A stretch of DNA of 36,969 nucleotides from a virus, in IMG/VR virus record IMGVR_UViG_3300040770_000189, positions 1 to 36,969 of that record; one strand, written 5' to 3'. Below are positions 3,318-36,969 of this stretch, in pieces. Numbering within the stretch: position 1 is the first letter of the stretch; each line of letters begins with the position of its first letter. The notes below the pieces were generated by a model. The model was not told the origin of the DNA. It did not search any database and saw only the letters and a list, made by a program, of their open reading frames with translations. A program made the position numbers and the translations under genes.

Positions 3318-3820
3318 AAAATTTAATCAATTCACTTTTCGCGCGCTTCGGTTTCGCGCCTGTATTTCAAATTGCAAATTTTCGAAAAGCCGAAAAAAAC
3401 TTTGCTGAACTCATTTCGCTGGAACAACAAGCCGTTTCTTTTGTGCAAAATACGTTGAAAGTAATAAACAACGCCGTAAAAAACGAATTAAAAAGGAACG
3501 GCTACGATCCAGCTGACGTTTTAAACGGTAAATTAAGGCTTTCAGCTATAGCCACAACGTCGGAACAAGATGAAAGATTTAAAAGCCAAACTTATAGCGT
3601 TGACGGCTATGTTATTTTAAAAGTAAAATGGAAACCTAACGGCTTCACAATGGAAGTAAACACGGCCGAACAAACTACAGCTAATAAAAAAGCTATGAAA
3701 TCAGGCGAAAACAAAAAGCGCGATTTTAGCAAGTTAAAGGCAAAAGAAAAAGACGAAGTTGAAGTTGAAGCTTTAACAAATAAAAAAATAAATAAAAAAA
3801 AACATTTTAAATCTGTATAA
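3314..3820 (+). CDS. hypothetical protein with Lys-rich C-terminal tail (168 aa)
   Basis: Track ORF 3284..3820 trimmed to the Met at 3314, which is ATGA-coupled to the upstream ORF. Normal coding composition. No motif recognised. Confidence 0.5.
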   Translation: MKNLINSLFARFGFAPVFQIANFRKAEKNFAELISLEQQAVSFVQNTLKVINNAVKNELKRNGYDPADVLNGKLRLSAIATTSEQDERFKSQTYSVDGYVILKVKWKPNGFTMEVNTAEQTTANKKAMKSGENKKRDFSKLKAKEKDEVEVEALTNKKINKKKHFKSV

Positions 3821-3890
3821 AAGTATTACATTTGAATTCTCCTTTATAATGCTGTTAATTTGTTGTTAACATTTTTTTTAGTTTAGACTC

Positions 3891-3918
3891 AAAAGCCTTC
3901 TTGAATGAAGGCTTTTTT
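3891..3918. terminator. bidirectional rho-independent terminator
   Basis: The 9-bp stem AAAGCCTTC pairs with GAAGGCTTT around the loop TTGAAT. It is followed by T6 on the plus strand and by TTTT on the minus strand. Sits between the plus cassette (stop 3820) and the minus gene ending at 3921. Confidence 0.65.
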
Positions 3919-3920
3919 GT

Positions 3921-4427
3921 TTAAGAAGGTTTTAAGTAATACGTTGAAGCGTCAACGCCAATTTCAAGTTCAGGAACGCCAACAAGTAACTTCAATTTGT
4001 TCTTTCTATTGGCCGTGTTATCTATTAAAAGTGTGTTGTATTCCATTTTCCAAATAATTACGGCGTCGTGGTTCGAATCCTGTTCCTCTCGTCTCCTATT
4101 CAATGAAGTTACTAAATTGTCAACGGAAAAATTCTGAAGCTGAAAATTTAGTTTACCAGCCAAAACAAAAACTTCCCTGTCTTCAGTTTTTAAAGAAGAA
4201 AATCCCAAATGAAAGCGAATTATCGCGTCGGCTTCCTGTAAGCTTTCACTTTTCGTTATATACTCCAAAACAGGAAATTCAACAAAAACAGCCGGAAAAG
4301 AAAAGGCTTTTTCAACGCCTTCTTTTTCGAATTGGTTGTTGTATAGCCTAAAGGTTTTTATTTCGGGAATTTTGGCCGTTATGTGTTCTTTTAAAGCGTC
4401 AAACAGCAATAATTTAGGATCATTCAT
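3921..4427 (-). CDS. head-tail joining / tail completion protein (DUF3168-like pattern)
   Basis: 168 aa. The N-terminus LLLFDALKEHITAKIPEIKTFRLYNN resembles tail-completion/neck proteins. Located next to a gpG-like gene in the head-tail joining block. Confidence 0.4.
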   Translation of the reverse strand: MNDPKLLLFDALKEHITAKIPEIKTFRLYNNQFEKEGVEKAFSFPAVFVEFPVLEYITKSESLQEADAIIRFHLGFSSLKTEDREVFVLAGKLNFQLQNFSVDNLVTSLNRRREEQDSNHDAVIIWKMEYNTLLIDNTANRKNKLKLLVGVPELEIGVDASTYYLKPS

Positions 4428-4439
4428 TTTATTAATTTA

Positions 4440-4853
4440 TTAATTCAAAACACTTTTAATCTCTTTGTCAATTCTAGCTTTTATTTTGCGCGAAAGCGTC
4501 GCACTCGAACCGATAAACTTCCTTTTTGGTAGTTTTCCAACGCCTTTATTGTGAAAAGACATATAAGGCACTCCGTAAGCGCCTATTTCTATCAAGTTGA
4601 AGCTTGCTACCCTTACACGAATAGAACCGCGCCCGTGGCCTGTTTTGACTAAAATAGCGCGCGTTCTTGCTGTCCTTCTATCGCTTTTATCTTTCGTTTT
4701 TCTTGCTTCCCAAGGTTCAAGGCTTACGTCTGTAAATCCACCATCACGAAAAGACTGAACAAAATGACGCTTGGCCATATTACCAATAATAACCGGTAAA
4801 TTGCGCTTTGCTTGCTCAAATTCTTTTATTTTCTGTTTAAAGTTAAAAGCCAT
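4440..4853 (-). CDS. virion morphogenesis protein (Mu gpG / HK97 gp10-like)
   Basis: FVQSFRDGGFTDVSLEPWEARK...ILVKTGHGRGSIRV fits the gpG/gp10 pattern (F..gG....W.p......iL..tG.l..Si). It follows the MuF-like gene, as in Mu. Confidence 0.55.
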   Translation of the reverse strand: MAFNFKQKIKEFEQAKRNLPVIIGNMAKRHFVQSFRDGGFTDVSLEPWEARKTKDKSDRRTARTRAILVKTGHGRGSIRVRVASFNLIEIGAYGVPYMSFHNKGVGKLPKRKFIGSSATLSRKIKARIDKEIKSVLN

Positions 4854-4857
4854 TTTA

Positions 4858-5082
4858 CTAATAATCTGTTTCAGTTTCTTCGGGTTCGGGTAAAAACTCT
4901 TTTATTACGAATCCTAAAGGTTCTACAAATTCGTAAAAAAAGAACGCTTCAGGGTCGCCGTTTTGCGGTTCCGGCCTGTAGCCATCAAAAGCGGTTTTTA
5001 TACATTTAAAATCCTTAGGCCAACTAATTTCTTCGCCTTTTAAACTAAATAAAGCGCCGTTTGGGTGTTCTGCTGTTATCAT
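4858..5082 (-). CDS. small acidic protein (74 aa), ATGA-coupled to the MuF fusion gene
   Basis: 16 acidic versus 6 basic residues. The start codon overlaps the upstream stop (ATGA at 5079-5082). Confidence 0.5.
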   Translation of the reverse strand: MITAEHPNGALFSLKGEEISWPKDFKCIKTAFDGYRPEPQNGDPEAFFFYEFVEPLGFVIKEFLPEPEETETDY

Positions 5083-6749
5083 TTACTTTCACGAATTAAA
5101 TTATATATTGTTTCAAAATAATCAAAATCTTTTTCGATTAAACGTGTAGGGTTTTTAAAAACTTCTGTAAACCACATCGTTAGTATTTCAGAAGACCCTT
5201 CGCGATTGTAATATTTACCAATGTAAGGTTCAATAAAATTGTCTTTCTTGGTAACTTCCGACCAGCCGTAAGCCTTATTTCCTGTAACATTCCGCAAAGC
5301 TTCAACTGTATCGTTAGCCGTTCGCCTATTGTAAAATTCCATTATACGCGCGTGGAGTTCAGGCCTGTCGTGTTCTAAAAAGTGACCAAGTTCATGAAGA
5401 ACTGTTTCAGTTCCGTCTGAAGGCGATAAAGTCACCCTATTATAAACCCCGCTTGCGTAACTAGCGCGAACTTTTTTCTTTATATAAACGTTTACAGACT
5501 TTTTTAAAGGTTGCCATTTATTAGAAATAAAACCGCTAAATTTTTCAAGCTTAGGCTTCATTTTTAAATAAGAAGCGTCAAATTCACCATTCAAAGAAAC
5601 AAAGCTTAAAGGTTCAATTGGATTATCTACCTTTAAAATATTAATAATTTCGGCTTCAGCTTTTCTAAGCAAGCTTTCTTTTTTTGTTACTAGCCTATTT
5701 CTAAGTTTTACCTGATCATTGAATTTTAAAACACGCGCTGAATATTCCTCGCGGTTTTTTCTGAAGTCAATCTTATTAATTTCTGCTATCTCAATTTTCT
5801 GTTCAGCTATTATTTTTTGAAGTTGAATTTCAACTTCTTTTGCTTCTTTTATGAATGTAATGTTTTTAATTTTTTCGCCAGCCATTTCGGCGCTTTGTTG
5901 TGTAATTGGTAATGCTTCAGGAACTTCAGGAACCGGAACTTTTGGCGCTCTCGGTTTTCTTGGCTTGACAATTTTAACTTCAGGGACAAAAGGCAAATCG
6001 AAATTTTTTCCAAGCGCTACTTTATAACGCTGATCAACTTTTAAATAAGGGTGAATGTCTTCGCGAAAAATAATTTTGTCTTTTCCTGAATTCATTTTAA
6101 ACAGTTCAGGAATAGGGTCAAAAGTCCTTTTTGGGTCTGTTTCCTGTTCTTCGTTTTCTTCAAGTTGTTCAGTTGTGCAACGACAATTCCAATCGTTAGG
6201 CGGGAAATAATCGTTCCAAAACTTATCACCTACAGCAAAAACAACTTCGTCAAGGTCTTTGTGTTGCTCCCTAACGCGCTGATCACCTATAGTAATATAT
6301 TTTAATAAAGGAAATATTTCTTTGTTTTCTTGTATGTCGTTCCATTGCCTAGCGCTGGAAGCCTGACTTAATGCGGTATTATATTCAGTGTTTAGCCAAT
6401 TTTTATTATAAGTTTCGAATATCTCACTAGCATACTTTTTGAACTCGCTAAAAGGAATTTTATCTTTTCCAGCAAATAAGAAATTACTCATATCGTTGAC
6501 CTGTTGAAATGTCTTGGCGCCCGAAAAAACAGCTATATTCTTTTCAAATCCGGCCATAATAAGACCCGCTTCAGTAGAAGTGTCAAAATCTGAATAAGTA
6601 CCGCCAAACCCATCAAAAACAGCCTTATTCAAGCGCGCTTTAATATCGTTATACAACCCAACAGGCAAAACTTCACGCGAAATTGAACCGCCGTAAAGGT
6701 CATTTATTATCTTTTCAATTTCTTCGTCTGTATAGTCTAGGCCGTTCAA
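5079..6749 (-). CDS. MuF/SPP1 gp7-like minor head protein fused to an HExxH metallopeptidase-like C-terminal domain
   Basis: MuF core: YITIGDQRVREQHKDLDEVVF...FWNDYFPPNDWNCRCT. This is followed by a Pro-rich linker (PRKPRAPKVPVPEVPEALP), a coiled coil, and VLHELGHFLEH (HELGH encoded at 5382-5396). Confidence 0.8.
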   Translation of the reverse strand: MNGLDYTDEEIEKIINDLYGGSISREVLPVGLYNDIKARLNKAVFDGFGGTYSDFDTSTEAGLIMAGFEKNIAVFSGAKTFQQVNDMSNFLFAGKDKIPFSEFKKYASEIFETYNKNWLNTEYNTALSQASSARQWNDIQENKEIFPLLKYITIGDQRVREQHKDLDEVVFAVGDKFWNDYFPPNDWNCRCTTEQLEENEEQETDPKRTFDPIPELFKMNSGKDKIIFREDIHPYLKVDQRYKVALGKNFDLPFVPEVKIVKPRKPRAPKVPVPEVPEALPITQQSAEMAGEKIKNITFIKEAKEVEIQLQKIIAEQKIEIAEINKIDFRKNREEYSARVLKFNDQVKLRNRLVTKKESLLRKAEAEIINILKVDNPIEPLSFVSLNGEFDASYLKMKPKLEKFSGFISNKWQPLKKSVNVYIKKKVRASYASGVYNRVTLSPSDGTETVLHELGHFLEHDRPELHARIMEFYNRRTANDTVEALRNVTGNKAYGWSEVTKKDNFIEPYIGKYYNREGSSEILTMWFTEVFKNPTRLIEKDFDYFETIYNLIRESK

Positions 6750-8819: not shown

Positions 8820-9227
8820 TTAAACGCTTGGCTTAATTTCGGTTTTCTTTTCGCCTTCTTCGGCTTTTTTCTTAGCTTCTTCAGCTTCATTTTTTTTCTT
8901 TTCCTTATAAGCTTTGTCTGTTTGTGCTTTTTTGGCCTTTGCTTCAGCTTGTTTTTTTGCTTCTTCTTCAGTCAATTCTTTTTTAGGTTCTGAAATTACA
9001 GCTTCATAAATTTCACCTACTTTAAAAACCGCTTCAACTCCTTTTTCTTCGCCTTCTTCAGCTTCTTCGCCTTCTTCAGCTTCTTCAAGCGTGGCCTGAA
9101 TCCTGAAACCGTCCTTCAGCTTTTCGTTAGGGTTCTTTTCTTCAGCTGGAACAAATGACGCTATATAAACACCGCCTTCAGAATGATCAACGTCAGTACA
9201 CACAACGTTAAATTTAATTTTCTTCAT
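8820..9227 (-). CDS. highly charged Glu/Lys-rich protein (135 aa)
   Basis: A small N-terminal domain is followed by EEAEEGEEAEEGEE and a K/E/A-rich tail. The coding DNA contains a perfect 18-bp tandem duplication (9051-9068 = 9069-9086). Confidence 0.6.
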   Translation of the reverse strand: MKKIKFNVVCTDVDHSEGGVYIASFVPAEEKNPNEKLKDGFRIQATLEEAEEGEEAEEGEEKGVEAVFKVGEIYEAVISEPKKELTEEEAKKQAEAKAKKAQTDKAYKEKKKNEAEEAKKKAEEGEKKTEIKPSV

Positions 9228-9278: not shown

Positions 9279-10838
9279 TTAATACACGTTTTTTTTAGTT
9301 CTATTTCTAATAACTGCTTTTTCCACACTCTTAGAAGAACCAAAATTTTCGAAACTTGACGAAAAATAATAAGTATAAAAATAGTCGTTCGCGTCGGTGT
9401 TGTGGCCGTATTTCTCAAAAACTACGCCTGTAACGCTGTTTTTTTCCTTCTCTTTGTGCTTTGAACCGTCTGAAGCTTGTTTTAAATACTTATAGTCTCC
9501 TATTGTCTTGGTGCAATTGTCGCCAATACTGACTTCTATACCGTCAAGGCCATTCAAAACGGCGTTGAACCAATTACAACGAAGTTCGACGTTAGGGTTC
9601 TTCGAAGGAACGCGCCTGACAACTGTATAACCATAATCGCGAAGCGCGTTTTCAATAAGCACAAAGAAATTAACACCTTTTTCAAGTTTTACGTCGGCCT
9701 TTTTACTTGTGGCGTCGCCATACACAAAAACAGTCATTCCGTTAGGTTCATAACGGCTGTAAAATTCTTTTAAGGTATGGTTTAGCGTGTTTCTAGGGTC
9801 TTCAAGACAAATTTCGTCAATTTGCCAAGCTTTTAAACCTTCAGCTTGATGAATGTCCAGCGTCATAAATGGATTTACATTTTCGTCAAAAGTCAAATGA
9901 AGCGACTTTTCAGGATCATAAAGCCAAGGCTTTACGTGTCTTTTAATATCAAAGTTCTTGTACATTTCGCCACCTTTGTTTAATTTACCCCATTCGCCAA
10001 GGCCATAAATAGCGTAAAAGTCCCAATCGTTAACTTTGTCTTGATCAAAATCCATTATAGTTTGTTCGTCTAAAAATCCAAAGCTTTCGCAAGGCGAACC
10101 AACGACCCAAAAGTTATTAAGATAAGTCGACTTAATTACAACTATATTCGAAGGTCTTTCAAGTCCTTTAATGAATAACGGCGCGCCTTCCCATTTCTCA
10201 GTGACTTCAGTATAAACAGGATCAATGTCAAGCTTCAATACGCCGTTTCTATCTACTAACGAATTTGATAAAACTTGTTTTTTCTGCTTGTCGAACACCT
10301 CTTTTTTAATCCAATGCTCTTCGTCTATAGGGTTAAACATACAAACTATTTGCTGACCTGAACGACCCCTTAAACGCTTTCTAATCTGCTTATAATCTGC
10401 AAACTCCATTTCGCTTATTTCGTCCATTACTACGCGCTTATACCCCGATATACCTTTAATTTTCTGATTGTCGTCAAGTCCTTTGAAGTCGATAACGGCG
10501 CCGTTTACACAAGTTATTTTTCTATAATTTATCTTAAAGAACTGTTCTAGTTTCAGCGTTCTAATAATTCCAACAACGTCTTTATAAATAGTACTTTCAA
10601 GGGTCGCCGATACTTTACGAAAAATTAAAGTATCGCTTCCCTCGATCAAAGACCCCACAATAACAACGGCTTGACTTACACTGTAAGTTTTGGCCGAAGA
10701 TGAACCCCCGTAACACCATATAAAACGGCGCGAAGGGTCGCAAAATTCGCGTTCTATATGGTGAAAGTTAGGATTGAATAGTTTCCAATTAAAGCGAAGT
10801 TTTACGCGGTTCTTGTCGTTAGTCTTCATCGAATTCAT
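9279..10838 (-). CDS. terL: terminase large subunit
   Basis: Walker A-like CYGGSSSAKTYS and Walker B RVVMDEISE, with C-terminal nuclease-like acidic motifs. 519 aa. Overlaps the small-subunit gene by 20 nt. Confidence 0.8.
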   Translation of the reverse strand: MNSMKTNDKNRVKLRFNWKLFNPNFHHIEREFCDPSRRFIWCYGGSSSAKTYSVSQAVVIVGSLIEGSDTLIFRKVSATLESTIYKDVVGIIRTLKLEQFFKINYRKITCVNGAVIDFKGLDDNQKIKGISGYKRVVMDEISEMEFADYKQIRKRLRGRSGQQIVCMFNPIDEEHWIKKEVFDKQKKQVLSNSLVDRNGVLKLDIDPVYTEVTEKWEGAPLFIKGLERPSNIVVIKSTYLNNFWVVGSPCESFGFLDEQTIMDFDQDKVNDWDFYAIYGLGEWGKLNKGGEMYKNFDIKRHVKPWLYDPEKSLHLTFDENVNPFMTLDIHQAEGLKAWQIDEICLEDPRNTLNHTLKEFYSRYEPNGMTVFVYGDATSKKADVKLEKGVNFFVLIENALRDYGYTVVRRVPSKNPNVELRCNWFNAVLNGLDGIEVSIGDNCTKTIGDYKYLKQASDGSKHKEKEKNSVTGVVFEKYGHNTDANDYFYTYYFSSSFENFGSSKSVEKAVIRNRTKKNVY

Positions 10839-11403
10839 AATCTATATTTTCAGTTTCTTCGCCCCCAATGTAAAATTCGGTTTGAGTTTTTACGGTGTTT
10901 TCAATTTTTTCTTCAGCGTTCCAGCCAAGATTTTTCAAGGCAAAAACCGCCCCTTGTGGAAAAGCTTCAGTTAAAAGGTTTTCATAATGCAAAGTTATAA
11001 TACCGCGCGCCTTCTTGATAATGTGACTAAAATCGCGGTTTTCTTCGTAAGCGTAAAAACTTTTTCTATCTGAAAACCCGCAATAAAGAACCAAACCGCT
11101 GATTGTCAGCTTTATATTATTTTCGTAACAATGTATAAAATAACCTGTAATTTCTTCTTCAAGTTCTTCAGGCGACGAATAAAGTCTTGGTCTTCCCTTA
11201 GGATTTTTAGAAAATATAAGTTCTATAAATTTTCTTTGTTGTTGAACTGCTGTAAGTTTAACAGGTTTTTCTTTTTCTTTGTCAACTAAATCTTTTGATA
11301 TAGAAAAAGGAACTAAAGAAGCGTCACGAACTGCCAAACGTTCGGCTTTTTTAATTTCAGTCTTTGTCTTTTTTGGCTCCCTTGGTTTTTTAGGCTGTTC
11401 CAT
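10819..11403 (-). CDS. terS: terminase small subunit
   Basis: LTISGLVLYCGFSDRKSFYAYEEN...FSHIIKKARGIITLHYENLL fits the terminase small-subunit HTH pattern. Lies directly upstream of terL. Confidence 0.65.
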   Translation of the reverse strand: MEQPKKPREPKKTKTEIKKAERLAVRDASLVPFSISKDLVDKEKEKPVKLTAVQQQRKFIELIFSKNPKGRPRLYSSPEELEEEITGYFIHCYENNIKLTISGLVLYCGFSDRKSFYAYEENRDFSHIIKKARGIITLHYENLLTEAFPQGAVFALKNLGWNAEEKIENTVKTQTEFYIGGEETENIDYEFDED

Positions 11404-12089
11404 TATTTTAATTTAATTTCATTAGTTCCGTTATAAAATACCGGTTCGGGGTTATCAATGCTTTTTTTGTAAAAAGCTAAAAAATCAGGCGTAAAAAGTA
11501 TTTCAAATCCTTCAAGTTTATCGTAACCCTCGTTAATAAACTCTATTATCAAGCCTTTGAATCGTTCCATATTCTCAGGCGATACCATTTCAGAAAGTAA
11601 ATTTATAATTCCTTCTTCCATATCGTAAAGGTAATTAAAAACACCTGTTTTGTAAACAAATGCTTCCCGTTTTAGACCTCTTTGAAACATAGGCGACTTA
11701 TCTTCTATGATTGCAAAAATAATGTCTTGAAACTCCTGTAATGATCTAAACACAAAAACCCTAAAACCGTGTTCGTGTAAAATATTATGAATTTTTACTT
11801 GATCCCTCGAAACTGTTCCTGTTGGCGTTTTACACTCTAAAAAGAAAGTTCTTTTCCAAAAATGAAATTCCAAATCAGGAACGCCAGCAACAACGCCCAA
11901 AGCTTTGAGCTGGTTTCCTTTTGCTCCTGTCATTTTACCGCCGTTAGGAACGTGATACATTAAACCGCGCAAAGCTGGAAAAGTATTGTGAAACCATTGA
12001 AAACATTCGCTTTGAATTCTGCCTTCGGTCTTTTGCTGTTCTGTAAGAACTTCTTCAATATTTTCTTCAAGTGTGATTTGCTTATTCAT
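11403..12089 (-). CDS. VRR-NUC (PD-(D/E)xK) nuclease with a C-terminal extension
   Basis: GVPDLEFHFWKRTFFLECKTPTGTVSRDQ matches the VRR-NUC core (PDl...h.E.K....ls..Q). About 100 extra C-terminal residues are of unknown function. Confidence 0.7.
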   Translation of the reverse strand: MNKQITLEENIEEVLTEQQKTEGRIQSECFQWFHNTFPALRGLMYHVPNGGKMTGAKGNQLKALGVVAGVPDLEFHFWKRTFFLECKTPTGTVSRDQVKIHNILHEHGFRVFVFRSLQEFQDIIFAIIEDKSPMFQRGLKREAFVYKTGVFNYLYDMEEGIINLLSEMVSPENMERFKGLIIEFINEGYDKLEGFEILFTPDFLAFYKKSIDNPEPVFYNGTNEIKLK

Positions 12090-12124
12090 ATTTTATAATT
12101 TTTAATTTGTTGTTTTCATTTAGC

Positions 12125-12396
12125 TGGAACGTTGGAACATTACCGGAACATCATATTTTTTTTAATGTTCCACCGCGAACCCTTTATTGGTAAGCCTTGG
12201 AACGTTTGGAACAATAGGAACATTGAAATTATAACATTTTATAAATAGGCTATATTATCATTATACGCCCATATTTCAAAAGTGTTCAGAATTCAATGTT
12301 CCAATGTTCCAATTTTAATAAACCCGCGCTATTACTAGCTTAACGCTGGAACGTTAAAAAAAATTCAATGTTCCAATATGAATTTTTAACGTTCCA
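12125..12396. repeat. array of 12 copies of a 9-mer TGGAACRTT / AAYGTTCCA (iteron-like)
   Basis: Forward copies: 12125, 12133, 12144, 12198, 12207, 12216, 12347. Reverse copies: 12164, 12295, 12303, 12367, 12388. A degenerate copy lies at 12281. An AT-rich spacer with no clean copies spans 12225-12294. Confidence 0.85.
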
Positions 12397-12409
12397 TTCT
12401 ACAAATAAC

Positions 12410-13924
12410 CTAAAAAGGGAATTTCTTTTGTTCCGGTTCTTTTGGGTCAGGTCTTACGTATTTGGCCGGTTCTAGTCCATTCTTATAAGAAGAAGTTGTT
12501 CTTAAATTAACATAATAACCGCGCGTTTTATGTCCATTTATTCGCTGGACGTCCGCAATAAAACCAAGCTGAACCATTGATTTTCCAATAAAACGAGAGT
12601 TTAAAGGCTTACCGCCGAATTTATCCGATAAGGTTAAAATTATATCCGGCAAGCTATAAAATTGGCCTGAAGTGTCGCTTATTTCAAAACACTGTTTAAT
12701 TAAATCTTTTTCAAGGTCTGAAATTTCAAAAGTTTTATTTGCCAAGTCGCGCGAAGCCATTTCTTCAGCTGTTAAACTTTGATTATATTCGGGGTCGTGG
12801 TACAAAGAATAGGCTTGCGACCATACGGCGTGAATATCAACTTCGGTTTTGTAATTCCAATTTATATCAATAACGTTAACACAAAGCCAGCGTGTATTTT
12901 CTGTATCTGTTAAAAATTCATTTTTATTTGTAGAGCCAAAGAAATTCGTTCGCCTTGGCTGTTCCTCGGCGTCTACAGCGTAAGCTTTTCTTTCTTTGAT
13001 GCTAGTCATTGAAATAATACTTTTTAAGTGATTTACTTCAATATTTGAAAGCGAAGCTAGTTCTTCAAGATTATAAATGAAATTTTCGCTAAAACTAAAA
13101 TAAGTGTCTTTGTTGTCTCTAATCGGTGCTTCAGTATAATATTTTGATCCAAAAGGGTTCAAAAATCTAATAAAAGTACTTTTTCCTTTTTCCTGTTTTT
13201 CTCCTACGAAAACATAAACGAAACGATTTTCAACGCCATAAAGCGCGCAACCTATACAGCGGACTAGCATTTTTCTAAATTGCGTAACGTGAAAATCTTG
13301 GTCAGTAGTAGTTACAAAATTTGCTAAGTTTCCGATGTGATCAATATCACGTTCCCAAGCTGGTAACGCTTCAAAATAATCAATAAAAGGGTTGTATGTA
13401 TCGACAAAATCAGAACGAAGCAAAGACTTAACTTTATCAATTGAAAAGTTAAATCTTACGTGTTGCAATTTTCTGTATAAGCTGTCGACGTTAAGTTTTT
13501 GATACTCGCTTTCAGGCTGGTTTTTTGGTCTGTATTCGCTTCTTTGCGTAACTTCATTTTTTACAAATTCCCAATTCTTACGAAGGAAATTTTCAACCTT
13601 GTAAATTTCAGGCTTTTCGTCAATTCCGAAGTCGTCTTTGTTAGCTTCAAAAACTCTTACAAAAACCGCGCGAACTTTGTCCATTGAAAAATAAAATCTT
13701 TCGCAAAGGTGCTTTATATCTGTTTCAGTCCAATTCCGGCCGGCCTTATTTACAGCGTGAATGAAAGAGTAAATTTCGCGCCAATTGTCCTTTTCTTGGT
13801 CTGTTCTTGCTTGTTGTACTTCGGGCGTTTCGTCAAATTCTACATATTTTGCTGACTGAATAAAGTCGTTTTTAATAAAATTTTCAGGTGTTATTTTTTT
13901 TTCTTGATCTTGACTTTTCTCCAT
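12410..13924 (-). CDS. VirE-family P-loop helicase (primase-associated, SF3-like)
   Basis: Walker A VFVGEKQEKGKSTFIRFL plus ...NLEEL...FFGSTN.. fits the virulence-associated protein E pattern. ATGA-coupled to the primase gene upstream. Confidence 0.75.
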   Translation of the reverse strand: MEKSQDQEKKITPENFIKNDFIQSAKYVEFDETPEVQQARTDQEKDNWREIYSFIHAVNKAGRNWTETDIKHLCERFYFSMDKVRAVFVRVFEANKDDFGIDEKPEIYKVENFLRKNWEFVKNEVTQRSEYRPKNQPESEYQKLNVDSLYRKLQHVRFNFSIDKVKSLLRSDFVDTYNPFIDYFEALPAWERDIDHIGNLANFVTTTDQDFHVTQFRKMLVRCIGCALYGVENRFVYVFVGEKQEKGKSTFIRFLNPFGSKYYTEAPIRDNKDTYFSFSENFIYNLEELASLSNIEVNHLKSIISMTSIKERKAYAVDAEEQPRRTNFFGSTNKNEFLTDTENTRWLCVNVIDINWNYKTEVDIHAVWSQAYSLYHDPEYNQSLTAEEMASRDLANKTFEISDLEKDLIKQCFEISDTSGQFYSLPDIILTLSDKFGGKPLNSRFIGKSMVQLGFIADVQRINGHKTRGYYVNLRTTSSYKNGLEPAKYVRPDPKEPEQKKFPF

Positions 13925-14811
13925 TATCTAAGTGTTAACTGTGACAACATACCCGTTAAAATAGCTGTTTTTGCTGTGTTTTGATACCCTTTTATTCCTT
14001 TTCGAAGGTAGGAATTATTTTGTATTAAAGTAAAAATAAATTGTTCCGATTCCATTTGATCTATGTAACCGCTTGATACATAACCGCCTAAGGTAACGCC
14101 TGCGCTTCTAACTTGCGGGTGTCCGTTGTCAATTATTGCGCTAAATAACTTAATAATTATATTCTGAACGCGCGCTTTGTCTCCTTCTCCAATATTAACC
14201 GGAACGATTGGCGCCGTTGAAGCTACAAACGCATTAATCATTTTACCGCGCTTAGTCCAAGTTTCCGGTTCCTCTCTATATAGTAAATCAGGATCATAAG
14301 ACAAAAACAAAGGCAAAACCGAATTTTGTCCGGTTCCGTCAAACCCTTTGTATTTTTCCATTTCAATAGCTATTCCAAAAAAGTATTCTTTGAATTCGTC
14401 AACGCTTTGAACAACCGGAATTTTTACCAAGAACTTACAACCTTTTTTTGAAGGCGAAAGCCAGCCGGCTATTATACATTTATAGTTATTAAACATAAAG
14501 TATTTGAATTCGTTAGCGTGTTCTATGTGATCAAAGTCCAATACTAAAAGGCCTGTAAAACTACAAATGTTGTCATAACCGCGACCGTTTCCGTCTGTAA
14601 AAACGCAAGGCGTAAAGTAAAAAAGATTATTTTGTTTTAAAGTAGCCTTGCGTTTCATATTTTTGTATTTTTCACAAATAGCGATCAATCTAAAAACACG
14701 TTTTATTTTGTTGCTTGGGTCTTGGTTAGCTTTTAGGAATTCAAAAAGCGTAACTTCTCCAATTGGTTTTTTTGAATTTACATAAGCCGGATAAAATTGA
14801 AATTTTACCAT
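13924..14811 (-). CDS. AEP-type primase domain protein (BT4734/VirE_N-like)
   Basis: Acidic LLVLDFDHI (DxD) motif in a ~295-aa protein immediately upstream of the VirE helicase. Confidence 0.65.
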   Translation of the reverse strand: MVKFQFYPAYVNSKKPIGEVTLFEFLKANQDPSNKIKRVFRLIAICEKYKNMKRKATLKQNNLFYFTPCVFTDGNGRGYDNICSFTGLLVLDFDHIEHANEFKYFMFNNYKCIIAGWLSPSKKGCKFLVKIPVVQSVDEFKEYFFGIAIEMEKYKGFDGTGQNSVLPLFLSYDPDLLYREEPETWTKRGKMINAFVASTAPIVPVNIGEGDKARVQNIIIKLFSAIIDNGHPQVRSAGVTLGGYVSSGYIDQMESEQFIFTLIQNNSYLRKGIKGYQNTAKTAILTGMLSQLTLR

Positions 14812-20840: not shown

Positions 20841-21040
20841 TTTTTTGGAAATATTAAAGTATAGAAAGAAACTAAAACACCAATAAAACCCGAAAATATA
20901 CAAATGATAAAAATTCTCTTTTTAAATCTTTTTGGCGTTCTTAAATCTTTTAATTTTAGTTCTATTAGAAAAACTAAATAATTTCCAATTCCCGACAAGA
21001 CCCAAAACAGTAATAATAATAAATAATTGAAATACTCCAT
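20837..21040 (-). CDS. small membrane protein (67 aa), first gene of the leftward operon
   Basis: MEYFNYLLLLLFWVLSGIGNYLVFLI...IFIICIFSGFIGVLVSFYTLIF. The start at 21040 lies 23 nt downstream of a TATATTTG box. Confidence 0.45.
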   Translation of the reverse strand: MEYFNYLLLLLFWVLSGIGNYLVFLIELKLKDLRTPKRFKKRIFIICIFSGFIGVLVSFYTLIFPKK

Positions 21041-21063
21041 AATATATTTTTTTTTGTTCACTG

Positions 21064-21071
21064 CAAATATA
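21064..21071 (-). promoter_or_regulatory. leftward -7 box TATATTTG
   Basis: Exact TAnnTTTG on the minus strand in the 119-bp divergent gap. Confidence 0.45.
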
Positions 21072-21117
21072 TGTAAAAAATAATTGCAAAAAAATTTTAA
21101 AATAACAAATTTAATTA

Positions 21118-21125
21118 TATCTTTG
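21118..21125 (+). promoter_or_regulatory. rightward -7 box TATCTTTG
   Basis: Exact TAnnTTTG on the plus strand, 34 nt upstream of the ATG at 21160. Confidence 0.45.
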
Positions 21126-21159
21126 CCCTCAACAACAACAAGCAAGAAAAATAAAAGTG

Positions 21160-21438
21160 ATGAAAAAGACCTATTTAATTGACGGTAAAATAAAACAAGA
21201 AAAAATCGAACAAAGTAAGATAAAAGAAGTCAATCAAAATTTTGTAATACGTTATAAATTTGACGGTGACAAAAAAACCTCTCTTATTGGAGCCGGTAAA
21301 TATGTCGTTCTTTTAGAGAATTCTAAAGACCCTGTTGAATTGGCAATTCGTCATTTTGAACGCGCCCTTAATTCGCCCGAAGCCAAAACAATAATTCGTT
21401 TAAGAGGTGGCTTAACTGTAAATTTTTGCTCAAAATAA
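21160..21438 (+). CDS. hypothetical protein (92 aa)
   Basis: First ORF of the rightward operon. The ATG at 21160 is preferred over the GTG at 21157. Confidence 0.5.
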   Translation: MKKTYLIDGKIKQEKIEQSKIKEVNQNFVIRYKFDGDKKTSLIGAGKYVVLLENSKDPVELAIRHFERALNSPEAKTIIRLRGGLTVNFCSK

Positions 21439-21456
21439 CTATAAAAATAAAATGAA

Positions 21457-21723
21457 ATGAAGAAAATTAAGAAGCCAACGGCTGAAGAAAAAAAGCGAAT
21501 ACCTACAGACGACAGTTTAAAAATTCGTATTATTAATGCAAAAGCGCTTTTGCCAAAAAGCGGTATAACTTCGCTTTTGATCTTTCAATTTCCTGAACTT
21601 GATACAGTAAAAAAAAGGTCTTTAATGTCTAACGTTTTGCAATTGAGAGCCACTGACAAAGACATAACTGAGAAGCTTGAAGCCTTAGTTAAAACATTGA
21701 GTACTAAGAAATTAACAAATTAA
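21457..21723 (+). CDS. hypothetical protein (88 aa)
   Basis: ORF in operon context. No motif recognised. Confidence 0.5.
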   Translation: MKKIKKPTAEEKKRIPTDDSLKIRIINAKALLPKSGITSLLIFQFPELDTVKKRSLMSNVLQLRATDKDITEKLEALVKTLSTKKLTN

Positions 21724-21741
21724 CAATTAAATATTTATATT

Positions 21742-22404
21742 ATGAGTGATTTTATCCCACAGGGTTACACACAGCCGACAAGCGCCGGCGGGTTTACTAA
21801 ATTAGAAACAGGAGATAACAAGATTAGAATTCTTTCTTCACCTTTGCTTATGTGGCTGGAATGGAGAGACGGAAAGCCAAAACGCCACGTTTACAAGCAA
21901 GGCGACCCAGCACCGAAAAAAGGCGAAGGACAAAAAGACAGTGTTAAACACGCTTGGGGTTTAATAATTTGGAATTACAAGACTGAAAAAATTGAAGTTT
22001 GTGAACTTGACAAAGCTGGCGTTATAGCAATGATTTTGTCATTGTCTGAAAAACCGGCTTGGGGTCACCCTAAGAATTACGATATAGTAATTACAAAAAA
22101 AGGGTCGGGAATGGACACGGAATATATTACAGCACCGGAACCGCCAAGCGCCGTTTCCGACGTAATTATTGAAGCTTACACCGAAAACCCTGTTGACTTG
22201 TCACAGTTATTTAATGAGGGCGGAAATCCCTTTTTGTCTAAAGCTACGGCTGGAAATCCATCAAACCCAAACACCCTACCAGCACAATCAAGCGCCAAGG
22301 TCGTGACGCCTGAAAATTGGGTTGCTGGCGATCTTATTCCGGCGGGTTATGAAATAAACCCTATTGGGGGCGGTGATATTGTAAAGAAAAAACTACCTTT
22401 TTAA
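21742..22404 (+). CDS. putative single-stranded DNA-binding protein
   Basis: GFTKLETGDNKIRIL...WGLIIWNY..EKIEVCEL...YDIVITKKGSGMDTEY resembles phage OB-fold SSBs. It has a flexible Pro/Ser/Asn-rich tail ending in KKLPF (compare the bacterial SSB tip IPF). Confidence 0.4.
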   Translation: MSDFIPQGYTQPTSAGGFTKLETGDNKIRILSSPLLMWLEWRDGKPKRHVYKQGDPAPKKGEGQKDSVKHAWGLIIWNYKTEKIEVCELDKAGVIAMILSLSEKPAWGHPKNYDIVITKKGSGMDTEYITAPEPPSAVSDVIIEAYTENPVDLSQLFNEGGNPFLSKATAGNPSNPNTLPAQSSAKVVTPENWVAGDLIPAGYEINPIGGGDIVKKKLPF

Positions 22405-22415
22405 TAACTAATAAG

Positions 22416-22441
22416 GGCGCGCGTAAAAACCGCGCCTTTTT
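22416..22441 (+). terminator. rho-independent terminator
   Basis: Stem GGCGCG, 9-nt loop, CGCGCC, followed by T5. Confidence 0.7.
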
Positions 22442-22462
22442 ATAAATCTAAATCAAAAAGAA

Positions 22463-22666
22463 ATGTCGAATAAAATTACTGTTAATGATTTTTTTATACT
22501 GTTGGTTATTTTTTTAACAGTATTGTTTTTTGCTTTAAAAATAACTGAAAAAATATATTGTTCTTGGTGGCTTATTTTATGCCCTTTATTAATCCCAAGC
22601 TGTTTTTACTTTTTTGTTTTTATTTTAGCTTTTATATATCTATATTCTAAATCTAAAACAAAGTAA
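22463..22666 (+). CDS. small membrane protein (67 aa, two TM segments)
   Basis: Hydrophobic segments FFILLVIFLTVLFFAL and CSWWLILCPLLIPSCFYFFVFILAFIYLY. Confidence 0.45.
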   Translation: MSNKITVNDFFILLVIFLTVLFFALKITEKIYCSWWLILCPLLIPSCFYFFVFILAFIYLYSKSKTK

Positions 22667-22668
22667 TT

Positions 22669-22860
22669 ATGTATGCAGTTATTAAATTGACCGGAAAATT
22701 TTACGCCAAGGACGTGACGGAACTTGATGAATTTGAAATTATAGAATACGTTGAATCTTTTATTAATGAAGGAAGTCCCGTGACTTTTTGCGACGAATTG
22801 CAAGACGCTGAAGAACTTTTTGGCGTTAGTATTGAACTTATTGAAAAAGAAAATAACTAA
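22669..22860 (+). CDS. small strongly acidic protein (63 aa)
   Basis: 16 Asp/Glu versus 4 Lys/Arg by count. Confidence 0.5.
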   Translation: MYAVIKLTGKFYAKDVTELDEFEIIEYVESFINEGSPVTFCDELQDAEELFGVSIELIEKENN

Positions 22861-22878
22861 TTTAAAAATAAATTAAAA

Positions 22879-24153
22879 ATGGCAAAGGAAACACAAATTA
22901 AGAGAATAAAAATACAAAATTTTAAAGGTTTAAAAGCTTTTGAAGGCGAAATTTTAGGAAAAGACGTTTATTTAACAGGCCGAAACGCCAGCGGAAAAAC
23001 TTCTTTTATTGACGCTGTTTGGCTGGCTTTGACAGGTAAAAATATACCACCTAAGCCGGTAACAACAGGCGCTAAAAAAGGCGTTATTGAAGTTGAACTT
23101 TCAGACGGTTACATTGTTAGGACAAAATTAGCCGTAGGAAAAACACCTGTTCAATTTGAAATTGAAAATTTAAACGCTGTTGACGAAAAAGACAAATTTG
23201 TAAAAGCGCCCCGAACTTGGTTAAATGAAAGAATAGGCGTTATTGACTTTGATGTAAACGATTTTTTTAAAATGTCTGACGCTAAACAAGTGGAATATTT
23301 TTGCAAGATAACAGGCGTTGACGTTTACGAACAGGATCAGCAAATTGAAGAACTTACAGACAGCCGAAAATTTGATAAAAAGAAACTTATTGAGTTTCAA
23401 ACGCAAACCGGTTTTTTTGACCCTGAAGACGCTGAAAAAGATTTAATAGACATTGTTTCTTTGTCTAGCGAAATAAGTTCTTTAAAAGAATCTGAGCGCG
23501 TAAAAATGGAAACTTGGGACAAAGTGACTGACGGAGTATCTACGCGAGAAACTACTATTAAAGCGCTAAAAGCCGAAATTGAGGCCAAACTTAGTCAAAT
23601 AGAATCTATTGAGGTAGAAATTAAAAGTGGTTATGATTGGCTTAAAGACGAAAATAATAAACCAATTCCGAATAATAATCTTCAAGAAAAAGAAGCTTTA
23701 TTTCAAAATAGCAAGGTTATCAATGAAAGAATAGCCTTGGCCAAAACTTACAAGGAAGCCGACGACAGAATTGAAAAGTTAGAAAACGCAATATCTGAAG
23801 CAACTGAAGGAATAACCGCCCACAAGGACGCAAAAGCCGTTATAATTTCGGAAAAGATAAATATTGAAGGCTTATCTTATGATGTTGAAAATGAATGTTT
23901 TTTATTTAACGGCCTACCATTTGATAGAACACAAATAAACACCGCTTCGCAATTAATAGCCGGCCTTAAAATAGGCGCTTCACTTCTTAATGAAGTTAGA
24001 ATTTTAAAAATAGACGCTTCTTTAATAGACAAAGAAAACTTTGCAAAAGTACAAGAGTGGTCAAATTCTGAGGGTATAGAATTATTTGTTGAACTTGTTG
24101 ACCGCGAAGCGGGCGCTTTAAAGATTGAAATTGAAGAAAATATAAATGATTAG
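22879..24153 (+). CDS. SMC/Rad50/SbcC-like ATPase with a coiled-coil insert (424 aa)
   Basis: N-terminus IKRIKIQNFKGLKAFEGEILGKDVYLTGRNASGKTSFIDAVWLALTG (Walker A), a central coiled coil, a signature-like NTASQLIAGLKIG, and a Walker B-like RILKIDASLID. Confidence 0.65.
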   Translation: MAKETQIKRIKIQNFKGLKAFEGEILGKDVYLTGRNASGKTSFIDAVWLALTGKNIPPKPVTTGAKKGVIEVELSDGYIVRTKLAVGKTPVQFEIENLNAVDEKDKFVKAPRTWLNERIGVIDFDVNDFFKMSDAKQVEYFCKITGVDVYEQDQQIEELTDSRKFDKKKLIEFQTQTGFFDPEDAEKDLIDIVSLSSEISSLKESERVKMETWDKVTDGVSTRETTIKALKAEIEAKLSQIESIEVEIKSGYDWLKDENNKPIPNNNLQEKEALFQNSKVINERIALAKTYKEADDRIEKLENAISEATEGITAHKDAKAVIISEKINIEGLSYDVENECFLFNGLPFDRTQINTASQLIAGLKIGASLLNEVRILKIDASLIDKENFAKVQEWSNSEGIELFVELVDREAGALKIEIEENIND

Positions 24154-24328
24154 TAATGAAAAAACCGCGCTCGATGAACTTATTCGTCAGCGCGGTTCTT
24201 ATTTGGCTTTCTTGCCATTTTTGCACGTCGAAAAAGACCGCGAAAAACTTCTAAAAGAAATAAAAAATTTAACCAATCAAATAACTAAAAAGACAAATGA
24301 AAAACTTGGAAACTTCAACGCCGATTGA
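24146..24328 (+). CDS. hypothetical protein (60 aa)
   Basis: Overlaps the ATPase stop by 8 nt. No motif recognised. Confidence 0.4.
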   Translation: MISNEKTALDELIRQRGSYLAFLPFLHVEKDREKLLKEIKNLTNQITKKTNEKLGNFNAD

Positions 24329-28210: not shown

Positions 28211-28729
28211 TTATATAAATTCAAAGTTTTGAGAAACTAAATTTTGGCCGTTCATTATTAAGGTGTTAATAATCCACTGCTTAGCAAATTCATTTTCAAT
28301 TGTGAGTTCAGGCGCTTCAAGAGTTCCGCCGTCAAAATAATTTAAAGCGTCTTCAAAAGTAGGGTGTCCAAAATCTGAAATTGTGGCGCCCTTCGGTAAT
28401 TTTCCTTTGTTTTTACTTAGTAATTCTAGCAAAGGAACGTTTATAAATTCTTTTTCGCTTCCAATTTCTTCAGGTAATACTTCAGTGTTTTTTATTTTAG
28501 CTAAAGCGGTTCTATTTGAATTATTAGCTTCAAAATTCATTCCTTGAAAAGCTAGTGTATTAGTAGCCAAAATTATTCTTTTGTCATTGCCAATAACATA
28601 CATTTCAAAAGTAACTGAAAAATAATTTTCTTGTCTTTTATGTGTTATTTGTGTTTCTTCGATAAAAACTTTCGAAAAAGCGCCTTGACCCTCTAAGGGT
28701 GAATTATAAGTTTCAGTAAATAGTTTCAT
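28211..28729 (-). CDS. hypothetical tail-associated protein (172 aa)
   Basis: Follows the large fibre gene. No motif recognised. Confidence 0.4.
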   Translation of the reverse strand: MKLFTETYNSPLEGQGAFSKVFIEETQITHKRQENYFSVTFEMYVIGNDKRIILATNTLAFQGMNFEANNSNRTALAKIKNTEVLPEEIGSEKEFINVPLLELLSKNKGKLPKGATISDFGHPTFEDALNYFDGGTLEAPELTIENEFAKQWIINTLIMNGQNLVSQNFEFI

Positions 28730-36426: not shown

Positions 36427-36969
36427 TTAAGATATTTTTACGGCAAAGCCAATATTTACTTCGATTTTTCTTGCAACACCAACAGGAACTATTTTAAGAG
36501 AAAGAACTATTTTTGAAGAACTAATTACGTCCTGAGAAGGATTAATTTCGACTTCAAAAGTTGAAACTTCGCCGTCTTTCTGCATAACCTCAAGACCTCG
36601 GCGCGCGTCATTTCTGAAGCTTGCAATTGTATCTTCAGTCAAAGTCCCGTTTTCATTAACGTATAAAGGGGCGTTTAAGCTTGGTAAAAGGAATTTTCTA
36701 CAAGAACGAACAGCCTTGTCGATAGTCCTATTATTTTCTATAAAAGCATAATCTGAAGCCGTATCTGTTGACGTAGGCGAATCATTGAAGTAAGTTCCAG
36801 CGGTTCCTACGTGCTTTTTTATAAAGATATAACCTTTTGAATTTATAGCTTCAATAGCGCCTTCGCTTATCGTTTTTAAAAGTGTTCCGTCAGTAGACAA
36901 GGCCGGAACGTCGAATTCATTTGTCGCGTTTTTAGCTACATTAAAGCGACCAACCCAGCCTATATTTTC
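36427..36969 (-). CDS. contractile tail sheath protein, C-terminal part (continues from 1..691 through the circular junction)
   Basis: The track 'M' at 36900 is a TTG (Leu) codon inside an open frame that continues to 36969 (ENIGWVGRFNVAKNATNEFDVPA-LSTDG...). It is in frame with 1..691. Confidence 0.6.
   Translation of the reverse strand, partial: ENIGWVGRFNVAKNATNEFDVPALSTDGTLLKTISEGAIEAINSKGYIFIKKHVGTAGTYFNDSPTSTDTASDYAFIENNRTIDKAVRSCRKFLLPSLNAPLYVNENGTLTEDTIASFRNDARRGLEVMQKDGEVSTFEVEINPSQDVISSSKIVLSLKIVPVGVARKIEVNIGFAVKIS
36915..36969. repeat. 55-nt exact copy of 1..55
   Basis: See the feature at 1..55. Confidence 0.9.

Follow-up and report, generated by a model that had tools for sequence, protein, structure and literature searches.

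A putative replication origin in a Flavobacterium phage: a VapE/VirE helicase gene followed by an array of iterons

Results

The locus and its repeats

Record IMGVR_UViG_3300040770_000189 of the IMG/VR database, analysed here over its full 36,969 nucleotides (the window), contains a 320-bp gap between genes (12090-12409) that is crowded with copies of a short repeat, TGGAACRTT. The gap begins at the stop codon of a gene encoding a VapE/VirE-family helicase (hereafter VirE) and ends at the start of a gene encoding a VRR-NUC nuclease. We describe the repeats, their fate in related phages and the helicase beside which they lie, and we argue that the gap is most likely the replication origin of the phage: a helicase-initiator gene followed by its own iterons.

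The window holds the complete genome of a myovirus-type phage of Flavobacterium, a host of the phylum Bacteroidota. Nucleotides 1-55 are identical to 36915-36969, and this 55-nt end overlap defines a circular assembly of 36,914 bp with a GC content of 34.8%; one open reading frame (ORF) runs across the circular junction of the window ends. The nearest kin are Pippivirus lotta8-1 and pippi8-1 (~72% nucleotide identity over the region), with the F. psychrophilum FPSV phages and Cellulophaga phage phi18:1 as more remote relatives. All genes around the gap lie on the minus strand. Further upstream the replication module includes an SF2 (superfamily 2) helicase and a 3'-5' exonuclease; the 30 window ORFs that were scanned, covering the replication, packaging and plus-strand modules, gave no match to a DNA polymerase. 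The features of the locus, from the primase gene downwards, are as follows.

13924-14811, minus strand: BT4734-like primase domain protein, 295 aa (Pfam BT4734-like_N, 6.8e-9), directly followed by VirE, a pri-rep order
12410-13924, minus strand: VapE/VirE-family SF3 (superfamily 3, D5-like) helicase, 504 aa, the proposed initiator (Pfam VapE-like_dom, 4.9e-31; PHROG DNA helicase)
12503-12715, minus strand: predicted C-terminal winged-helix-like domain, VirE residues ~404-474, the proposed iteron reader (AlphaFold2, AF2)
12090-12409, no strand: putative origin, the whole gap between the VapE/VirE stop and the VRR-NUC start, 320 bp, with 9 of the 10 exact TGGAACRTT copies
12347-12396, no strand: outer cluster A, closest to the VirE stop, an inverted pair plus an extra copy (palindromes I1 and I6)
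12295-12311, minus strand: inner cluster B, a head-to-tail doublet (12303 and 12295, 8 bp apart) directed towards the AT-rich spacer
12225-12294, no strand: AT-rich spacer of ~70 bp, candidate unwinding region, GC 24%, dyad centre 12259.5
12198-12224, plus strand: inner cluster C, a head-to-tail triplet (12198/12207/12216, 9 bp apart) facing the spacer from the other side (repeat D1)
12125-12172, no strand: outer cluster D, nearest the VRR-NUC start, with 12125(+), 12133(+), degenerate 12144(+), a T8 run and 12164(-) (palindromes I1 and I8)
11403-12089, minus strand: VRR-NUC nuclease gene (Pfam/PHROG), the first gene downstream of the array; context, outside the origin
10819-11403, minus strand: TerS (GP3_package)
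9279-10838, minus strand: TerL

As the initial annotation of this DNA had supposed, no other stretch of the circularised genome without an ORF is as long as the gap, the runner-up measuring 191 bp. We rejected the possibility that it harbours an RNA gene or a missed gene: a scan of the whole window against Rfam returned zero matches, and the gap itself contains neither an ORF longer than 38 aa nor a detectable intrinsic terminator.

Twelve copies of the repeat are spread across 12125-12396, and every coordinate and orientation given for them in the initial annotation proved correct. Nine are exact: 12125, 12133, 12164(-), 12198, 12295(-), 12303(-), 12347, 12367(-) and 12388(-). The remaining three are degenerate, two with a single mismatch (TGGAACAAT at 12207 and AGGAACATT at 12216) and one with two (CGGAACATC at 12144). 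The head-to-tail phasing of 8-9 bp that had been remarked upon is real. The first iteron lies 14 bp past the VirE stop codon (12410), and at its far end the array stops 36 bp short of the VRR-NUC start.

Quantifying the enrichment, a check proposed at the outset, leaves little room for a coincidence of base composition. Over both strands the window contains 10 exact copies of TGGAACRTT compared to 0.91 +/- 0.94 expected from 100 dinucleotide-preserving shuffles, the highest count in any shuffle being 4. Moreover, 9 of the 10 fall inside the gap – 0.9% of the genome – where ~0.008 are expected. The tenth is a lone copy within a gene at 29857(-); this and a copy with one mismatch at 28433 are the isolated occurrences that had been noticed elsewhere. 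A strand-collapsed 7-mer clustering scan to which the motif was not supplied also returned the gap as a top cluster of the genome, and the 7-mer ATGTTCC occurs seven times in the genome, each time in the gap.

A two-fold symmetric element

Read from the VirE stop on the gene-sense strand the order of parts is A, B, spacer, C, D, with C oriented opposite to B. The inner groups thus face each other over the spacer and an inverted repeat pair lies on each outer side. In cluster A the inverted pair comprises TGGAACGTT at 12347(+) and TGGAACATT at 12367(-) with A8TTC between them; the extra copy, TGGAACGTT at 12388(-), is present in some close relatives only. Two independent imperfect palindromes, I1 (12145-12175 / 12344-12374, 31 nt, 84% complementary) and I2 (12214-12247 / 12272-12305, 34 nt, 76% complementary), share a single centre at 12259.5 within the spacer, and the whole element is therefore two-fold symmetric. 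The central module at first seemed inverted in the window relative to lotta8-1; an inversion was rejected, since the palindromic nature of the region itself accounts for the appearance.

At 24% the GC content of the spacer (12225-12294) is below the genomic 34.8%, and the 40 bp on its left side (12225-12264) rank 27th among the 36,929 least stable 40-mers.

Conservation of iteron cores in close relatives

We aligned the gap with eight related gaps of the GGAAC type – seven from IMG/VR contigs and that of lotta8-1 – whose VirE proteins are 65-92% identical to that of the window. Mean column identity over the nine gaps is 56%, and the invariant columns fall almost entirely in GGAAC/GTTCC cores. 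Eight iteron positions, two per cluster, are conserved, with cores invariant in all nine phages at 12125, 12164, 12207, 12216, 12295, 12303, 12347 and 12367. The conserved set thus includes 12207 and 12216, both degenerate when judged by the 9-mer. The invariant unit is (T)GGAAC(A); the palindromic AACGTT that had been taken for the core of the repeat is not the conserved part, and its palindromy is incidental.

The spacer behaves differently: its sequence changes freely between relatives while its length and AT-richness are kept, as is the opposed arrangement of the inner iterons around it. Conservation of cores amid freely changing spacers is the pattern expected for protein-binding sites, and we read it so from the alignment. 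It also bears on the possibility that the repeats are a product of chance or of selfish expansion, with no function. None of the 100 shuffles reached 10 copies, eight cores hold their positions across nine phages whose spacers have diverged, and – as described below – dozens of loci show this architecture built from different motifs. We consider this possibility effectively refuted.

The same place, other motifs

Immediately after VirE a top 7-mer cluster of the genome is found in lotta8-1 (motif TGGAACA), in FPSV-S1 (GGTTACAC) and in Cellulophaga phi18:1 ((C)TGGTCAC), and 7-mer scans show one repeat cluster per genome. Among loci from other contigs (denoted by L numbers) the motif after the VirE stop is GGTAACAGG in L017-L019 and of the GTTACA type in L014 and L020. 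Distant relatives retain the layout and the location while the motif is swapped, for GTTACA, GTAACA, GGTCAC, GGGTAC or GTTGTA.

The generality of the association was gauged from 54 IMG/VR loci that contain the VirE C-terminus together with at least 350 bp of downstream sequence. In 29 of them the unique best 6-mer cluster lies within 350 bp past the VirE stop, no other 350-bp window equalling its count; a further 9 have their best cluster across the stop or 180-580 bp downstream. With near-identical contigs removed an array is present in ~32 of 48 loci. Positives include loci whose proteins are only 27-32% identical to that of the window, with GGGTAC present 16 times (L068) and GTTGTA 8 times (L069-72).

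The upstream partner of the array is always the VapE helicase; the downstream gene is variable. VRR-NUC follows the array in close relatives and is a frequent, not a constant, neighbour. In phi18:1 two small ORFs follow; VRR-NUC lies at a distance of 1 kb, and TerS at 2.7 kb, seven genes further on. Elsewhere the next gene encodes a GP3_package TerS (L056), TerL (L066), an SNF2 helicase (L068), a Mob_Pre relaxase (L083) or an unknown protein (L054 and L069). That the array stays with VapE while the gene downstream varies argues against both a packaging recognition (pac) site and an operator of the late operon as a general explanation.

Each of these two explanations – both raised in the initial annotation – deserves closer attention. 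The first holds that the array is the transcriptional control region of the VRR-NUC/TerS/TerL late operon, its repeats bound by a phage activator or repressor, possibly VirE itself. The array does end just 36 bp short of the VRR-NUC start with no terminator between it and VirE, most close relatives carry it at the boundary of the replication and packaging modules, and a sigma-70-like TGAACA-17-TATAAT lies on the coding strand in the spacer (12288..12260). This last match is weak: the promoter scan gave 6 sites as against 3.2 by chance, and the consensus is not that of Bacteroidetes, whose promoters differ from sigma-70. Furthermore, no other promoter region of the genome carries the motif, its sole exact copy outside the gap being intragenic; unrelated genes follow the array in relatives (the SNF2 helicase, the Mob_Pre relaxase, the small ORFs of phi18:1); and twelve dyad-symmetric sites around an AT-rich spacer resemble an origin more than an operator. 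As a replacement for an origin we judge this explanation decidedly unlikely, though a regulatory role at the late operon may coexist with one.

The second holds that TerS, encoded ~0.7 kb downstream, binds the array as a pac site. TerS (GP3_package family) and TerL are indeed encoded just downstream, a TerS-like gene directly follows the array in L017, L019, L020 and L056, and a circular assembly with a 55-nt overlap is compatible with headful packaging. Yet in phi18:1 it is VirE that the array adjoins, TerS being seven genes distant and every copy of the 7-mer core lying in the one cluster; no terminase gene is adjacent to the arrays of L068 and L083; and motif type tracks the VapE clade rather than the terminase, phi18:1 and FPSV-S1 keeping the layout with no detectable match to the window TerS. 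A pac site is highly improbable. Both alternatives are conceivable for this one genome, but neither explains the relatives.

The VRR-NUC protein was also considered as the binder of the repeats and rejected: its gene is not beside the array in L054, L056, L066, L069 and L083, and the protein is short, lacking a C-terminal extension, in L039, L043 and L055. As a separate observation, the VRR-NUC of the phage group (window 11403-12089; L031, L033, L048, L063) carries a conserved C-terminal extension of ~100 aa with the motif ...YFYRHKIF.YLY..., for which Pfam offers no match; the short VRR-NUC proteins (108-144 aa) at other loci with an array lack this extension.

L083 merits a comment of its own. 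At 3547-5760 it encodes a distant VapE homologue, the stop of which is followed by an AACAGT-type array and then by the gene for Mob_Pre, a plasmid recombination/relaxase protein. The arrangement points to a plasmid-like, mobilisable element among the viral contigs that shares the helicase-plus-iteron replicon.

The helicase and its C-terminal domain

A profile built from 44 VirE homologues gave one strong match in the PDB, 7PDS_A (E = 2.5e-12, query 125-338). 7PDS is the complex of Rep1 with DNA from SaPI1, a Staphylococcus aureus pathogenicity island (SaPI). The same structure was the best Foldseek match of an AF2 model of VirE (mean predicted local distance difference test score, pLDDT, 72.7), with E = 2e-11 and a template modelling (TM) score of 0.51-0.58 over ~422 columns. 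Next came the NrS-1 helicase region, African swine fever virus (ASFV) PrimPol and monkeypox virus (MPXV) E5, all of which we take to be primase-helicases of the same D5-like SF3 class. Identity between VirE and SaPI1 Rep1 is ~15%; by profile and by predicted structure VirE is nonetheless homologous to SaPI1 Rep.

The initial annotation had labelled the gene beside the gap a primase-helicase. The 504-aa protein is in fact the helicase-initiator only, the primase being encoded by the separate upstream gene (13924-14811). Many homologues do join the two, as fusions of 717-803 aa comprising a BT4734-like primase (PF08800) and the VapE helicase (PF05272). Fused homologues (P0018-P0120; L015 3098-5311) sometimes also carry PriCT (PF08707), and in L015 and L016, which are of the fused type, no array lies directly after the stop.

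At residues 404-474 two AF2 models of VirE predict the topology H-beta-beta-H-H-beta-beta, that of a winged helix, with block pLDDT ~72-93. When this domain was searched alone, winged-helix DNA binders dominated the top of the Foldseek list, all with E > 0.1; among them are the origin-binding domain of P4 (1KA8; rank 2, E = 0.19, TM ~0.4) and RFX5 (TM 0.68). A motif of the predicted wing reads NGHKTRGY in all GGAAC loci and NGH[TAP][VT]RG[YF] in GTTAC loci, a difference that fits a C-terminal domain that reads the iterons. A serine-to-asparagine switch following the invariant lysine of the recognition helix was tried as the specificity determinant and rejected, since KSM/KSL goes with GTTAC iterons in L039 and L045; the wing motif (HKT versus H[TAP]V) fits iteron type better than Ser/Asn, yet separates two clades only.

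In L013 (5455-5955; same contig as L029) VirE measures 486 aa and has a C-terminal domain of its own; a distinct ORF of 166 aa comes next and encodes the recognition helix and wing a second time, as a stand-alone copy that is 59% identical to window VirE 444-472 (E = 3e-8). Downstream in L013 lies a weak iteron array of another type (GTAGAA). The 166-aa product may be a free paralogue of the origin-binding domain, perhaps a regulator of replication.

The C-terminus of VirE (window 12410-12440), like that of most homologues, is a flexible charged tail whose last residue is phenylalanine. Among 120 homologues (P0001-P0120) the final residue is F in 100 and the final two are PF in 55, in many cases preceded by acidic residues (...DDLPF, ...DDDAPF); the window protein ends ...KKFPF. 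Similar tails are those of the bacterial single-stranded DNA-binding protein, with its C-terminal tip DDDIPF, and the acidic Phe-ending tails of T7 gp4 and gp2.5. Through its tail VirE could recruit the replisome of the host.

Other regions of the genome

Two further regions drew attention. At 20900-21160 the DNA is the AT-richest and least stable of the genome (GC ~10%), and transcription diverges there between the minus-strand replication genes and a plus-strand block (21157-24328). The Bacteroidetes -7 box has the consensus TAnnTTTG, and a box of this type, TATCTTTG, lies at ~21117-21124, upstream of the ORF that begins at 21157. The early promoters probably lie here. The AT-richest stretch (21.0-21.15 kb) was also considered as a rival origin and rejected, there being no iteron-like repeats in it.

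The second region (9045-9087) lies inside an ORF of 135 aa (8820-9227, minus strand) between TerL and a Mu gp36-like gene. It comprises a perfect 18-nt tandem repeat of period 9, TTCTTCGCCTTCTTCAGC, present 2.3 times, and with it a local cluster of TGAAGAA/AGCTGAA 7-mers. Since both fall within the ORF the encoded protein is repetitive and rich in Glu, Ala and Lys.

Discussion

The arrangement described here has a close counterpart in the replicons of SaPIs. SaPI Rep is a self-loading helicase and initiator in one, whose C-terminal winged helix binds iterons of 5-6 nt; deletion of this C-terminal domain abolishes binding to the origin (ori), and iteron specificity varies from island to island (PMC9371898). 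The iterons, 6-12 in number, lie immediately downstream of the rep ORF around a central AT-rich region, with at least two on each side in opposite directions, and a primase is encoded upstream of rep or fused to it (PMC9371898). Point by point the phage locus follows the pri-rep-ori order of SaPI1 (Rep1, 7PDS) and SaPI5 (PriRep5, 7OLA): a primase gene, then a VapE-type SF3 helicase-initiator, then 12 repeats, 9 of them exact, starting 14 bp past the helicase stop, a number within the SaPI range. Three of these repeats (12198, 12207 and 12216, plus strand) oppose two others (12295 and 12303, minus strand) over a spacer of 24% GC, a moderate AT-richness. The BT4734-like_N primase gene adjoins VirE, with fused PF08800+PF05272 homologues known. 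For the C-terminal domain the comparison is less clear: a winged helix is predicted, but the fold matches of that domain all have E > 0.1.

The differences are equally plain. Unlike the SaPI elements this is a complete phage genome, not a satellite, from a Bacteroidota host; its helicase is ~15% identical to Rep1; its primase belongs to the BT4734-like family; and its iteron core of 6-7 nt is set in a 9-nt unit. The outer layer of inverted iteron pairs split by A/T runs, with its strict two-fold symmetry, may be an addition to the SaPI plan. Comparison of the sequences nevertheless makes it most likely that the element belongs to the known SaPI-type design, in which a helicase is followed by its own downstream iterons.

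Other replicons offer weaker parallels. The alpha protein of P4 unites primase, helicase and a C-terminal origin-binding winged helix (1KA8) that reads short repeats in ori and crr. That very domain is the second-ranked fold match of the VirE C-terminal domain, a weak one. P4, however, depends on both ori and crr, two separate repeat regions; the phages studied here have one cluster per genome, and the primase and helicase of the window are separate genes. In iteron plasmids (pPS10, F, R6K, RK2) initiator and iterons co-evolve, according to one review (PMC4980987). With these plasmids, and with lambda O and ori-lambda, the window shares initiator sites repeated beside an AT-rich unwinding element. 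RepA-type initiators and lambda O recruit the host DnaB and are not themselves helicases; the plasmid iterons measure 17-22 bp, and ori-lambda lies within the O gene. The proposed initiator of the window is itself a helicase, and its iterons are of 9 bp and lie downstream of the gene. A RepA-type iteron-plasmid origin was accordingly rejected, on the grounds that the 30 scanned ORFs gave no Rep_3/RepA match, the units are of 9 bp and a helicase gene is adjacent.

Papillomavirus E1 and SV40 large T are also SF3 helicase-initiators. They act on short repeats (GAGGC pentamers in SV40) with dyad symmetry and an AT-rich or easily melted element, and they assemble as two oppositely oriented hexamers; both belong to viruses of eukaryotes, and their origin-binding domain is N-terminal to the helicase and of a different fold. 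For the two-fold symmetry of the window they provide a functional analogy, homology being claimed only for the SF3 ATPase class.

Could the repeats be sites for the host initiator? The textbook consensus of the DnaA box is TTATCCACA, and the units of some relatives (TGTTCCACT) match it at 7 of 9 positions. Those of the window do not: on inspection its unit, AAYGTTCCA[AGC], is without the CACA end. The motif also changes between phage lineages, which a conserved host binder would not tolerate, and a cluster of DnaA boxes was rejected.

A further possibility is that the array is not a start of replication at all, but a partition (centromere-like) site or a copy-control site acting by handcuffing. 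Phased arrays of short repeats are known from plasmid centromeres and from copy-control loci such as P4 crr, and short phased repeats in two clusters are typical of both. Against partition stands the finding that none of the 30 ORFs scanned with Pfam is of ParA/ParB type. The closest cultured relatives, moreover, are reported to have no lysogeny genes (PMC7077304). Copy control would call for a separate origin-like array to act on, and each genome has one cluster only. We find this possibility barely credible.

We therefore return to the reading of the gap as a phage replication origin. The initial annotation had seen in it iterons around an AT-rich spacer beside a helicase gene, and the comparative evidence supports that view: iteron cores are conserved in nine phages, the layout is kept where the motif changes, the array stays with the VapE/VirE stop, and the helicase is homologous to SaPI1 Rep.

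Several observations weigh against the origin reading. The array sits exactly where the promoter of the packaging operon would be, and sequence alone cannot separate a regulatory role from that of an origin. About a third of the VapE loci surveyed (~16 of 54) have no detectable array within 600 bp downstream. The C-terminal domain taken alone gave no Foldseek match at E <= 0.001, and the covariation of protein and iterons is confounded with phylogeny, involving a few clades only. As to melting, the AT-rich core singled out in the initial annotation is genuine in composition, but extreme solely in its left 40 bp; over 60-100 bp its instability is moderate (z = 1.5-2), and the DNA least stable of all falls at ~21.0-21.1 kb rather than at the array. 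Finally, cumulative GC skew, proposed early on as a check, proved uninformative as to the origin. It declines steadily save at 21-24 kb, where genes are on the plus strand, and so follows gene orientation, with no inflection at 12.2 kb.

How might such an origin work? From the sequences, and by analogy with the systems above, we propose the following. The minus-strand replication operon would yield the primase (13924-14811) and the VapE/VirE SF3 helicase (12410-13924), and the C-terminal winged helix of the latter would read the TGGAAC(A) iterons that begin 14 bp past its own stop. The eight conserved iterons form the two-fold symmetric series (-> <-)(-> ->) AT-spacer (<- <-)(-> <-), in which the inner groups would place helicase on each side of the AT-rich 12225-12264. 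Melting of this segment would allow two helicase rings to load in opposite directions; the primase would then prime and a host polymerase synthesise. A host polymerase is proposed because no polymerase match was found among the ORFs scanned.

It is tempting to go one step further and to view the array as a dual switch. Loading of VirE would overlap the start region of VRR-NUC/terminase and thereby couple late transcription to the onset of replication; pairs of iteron and winged helix would be determinants of specificity and incompatibility; and the PF tail would recruit the host replisome. We regard this extended scheme as unlikely in its entirety. If true, the lineage-specific pairs of iteron and winged helix (GGAAC, GTTAC, GTAAC, GGTCAC and others) would act among co-infecting flavobacterial phages.

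The literature searched describes no origin and no iterons for these phages. In a 2025 paper on phi18:1 the two virE genes are still treated as virulence-related (PMC11946311). The present analysis offers a testable origin and initiator for the Flavobacterium/Cellulophaga phage group. Concepts of replication initiation are unchanged by the finding, and the design itself is already known; what appears to be new, as judged from sequence comparison, is the occurrence of a SaPI-type design outside the phylum of Staphylococcus and in a whole phage rather than a satellite.

Viewed more broadly, the SaPI-type replicon of helicase and then iterons appears to be widespread in phages of Bacteroidota: about two thirds of the VapE loci surveyed have an array no more than 600 bp from the stop. 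The 320-bp fragment together with the two genes could be a minimal replicon for Flavobacterium genetics, and the surveyed loci provide a natural series of matched iteron and winged-helix variants with which to study how the specificity of an origin changes.

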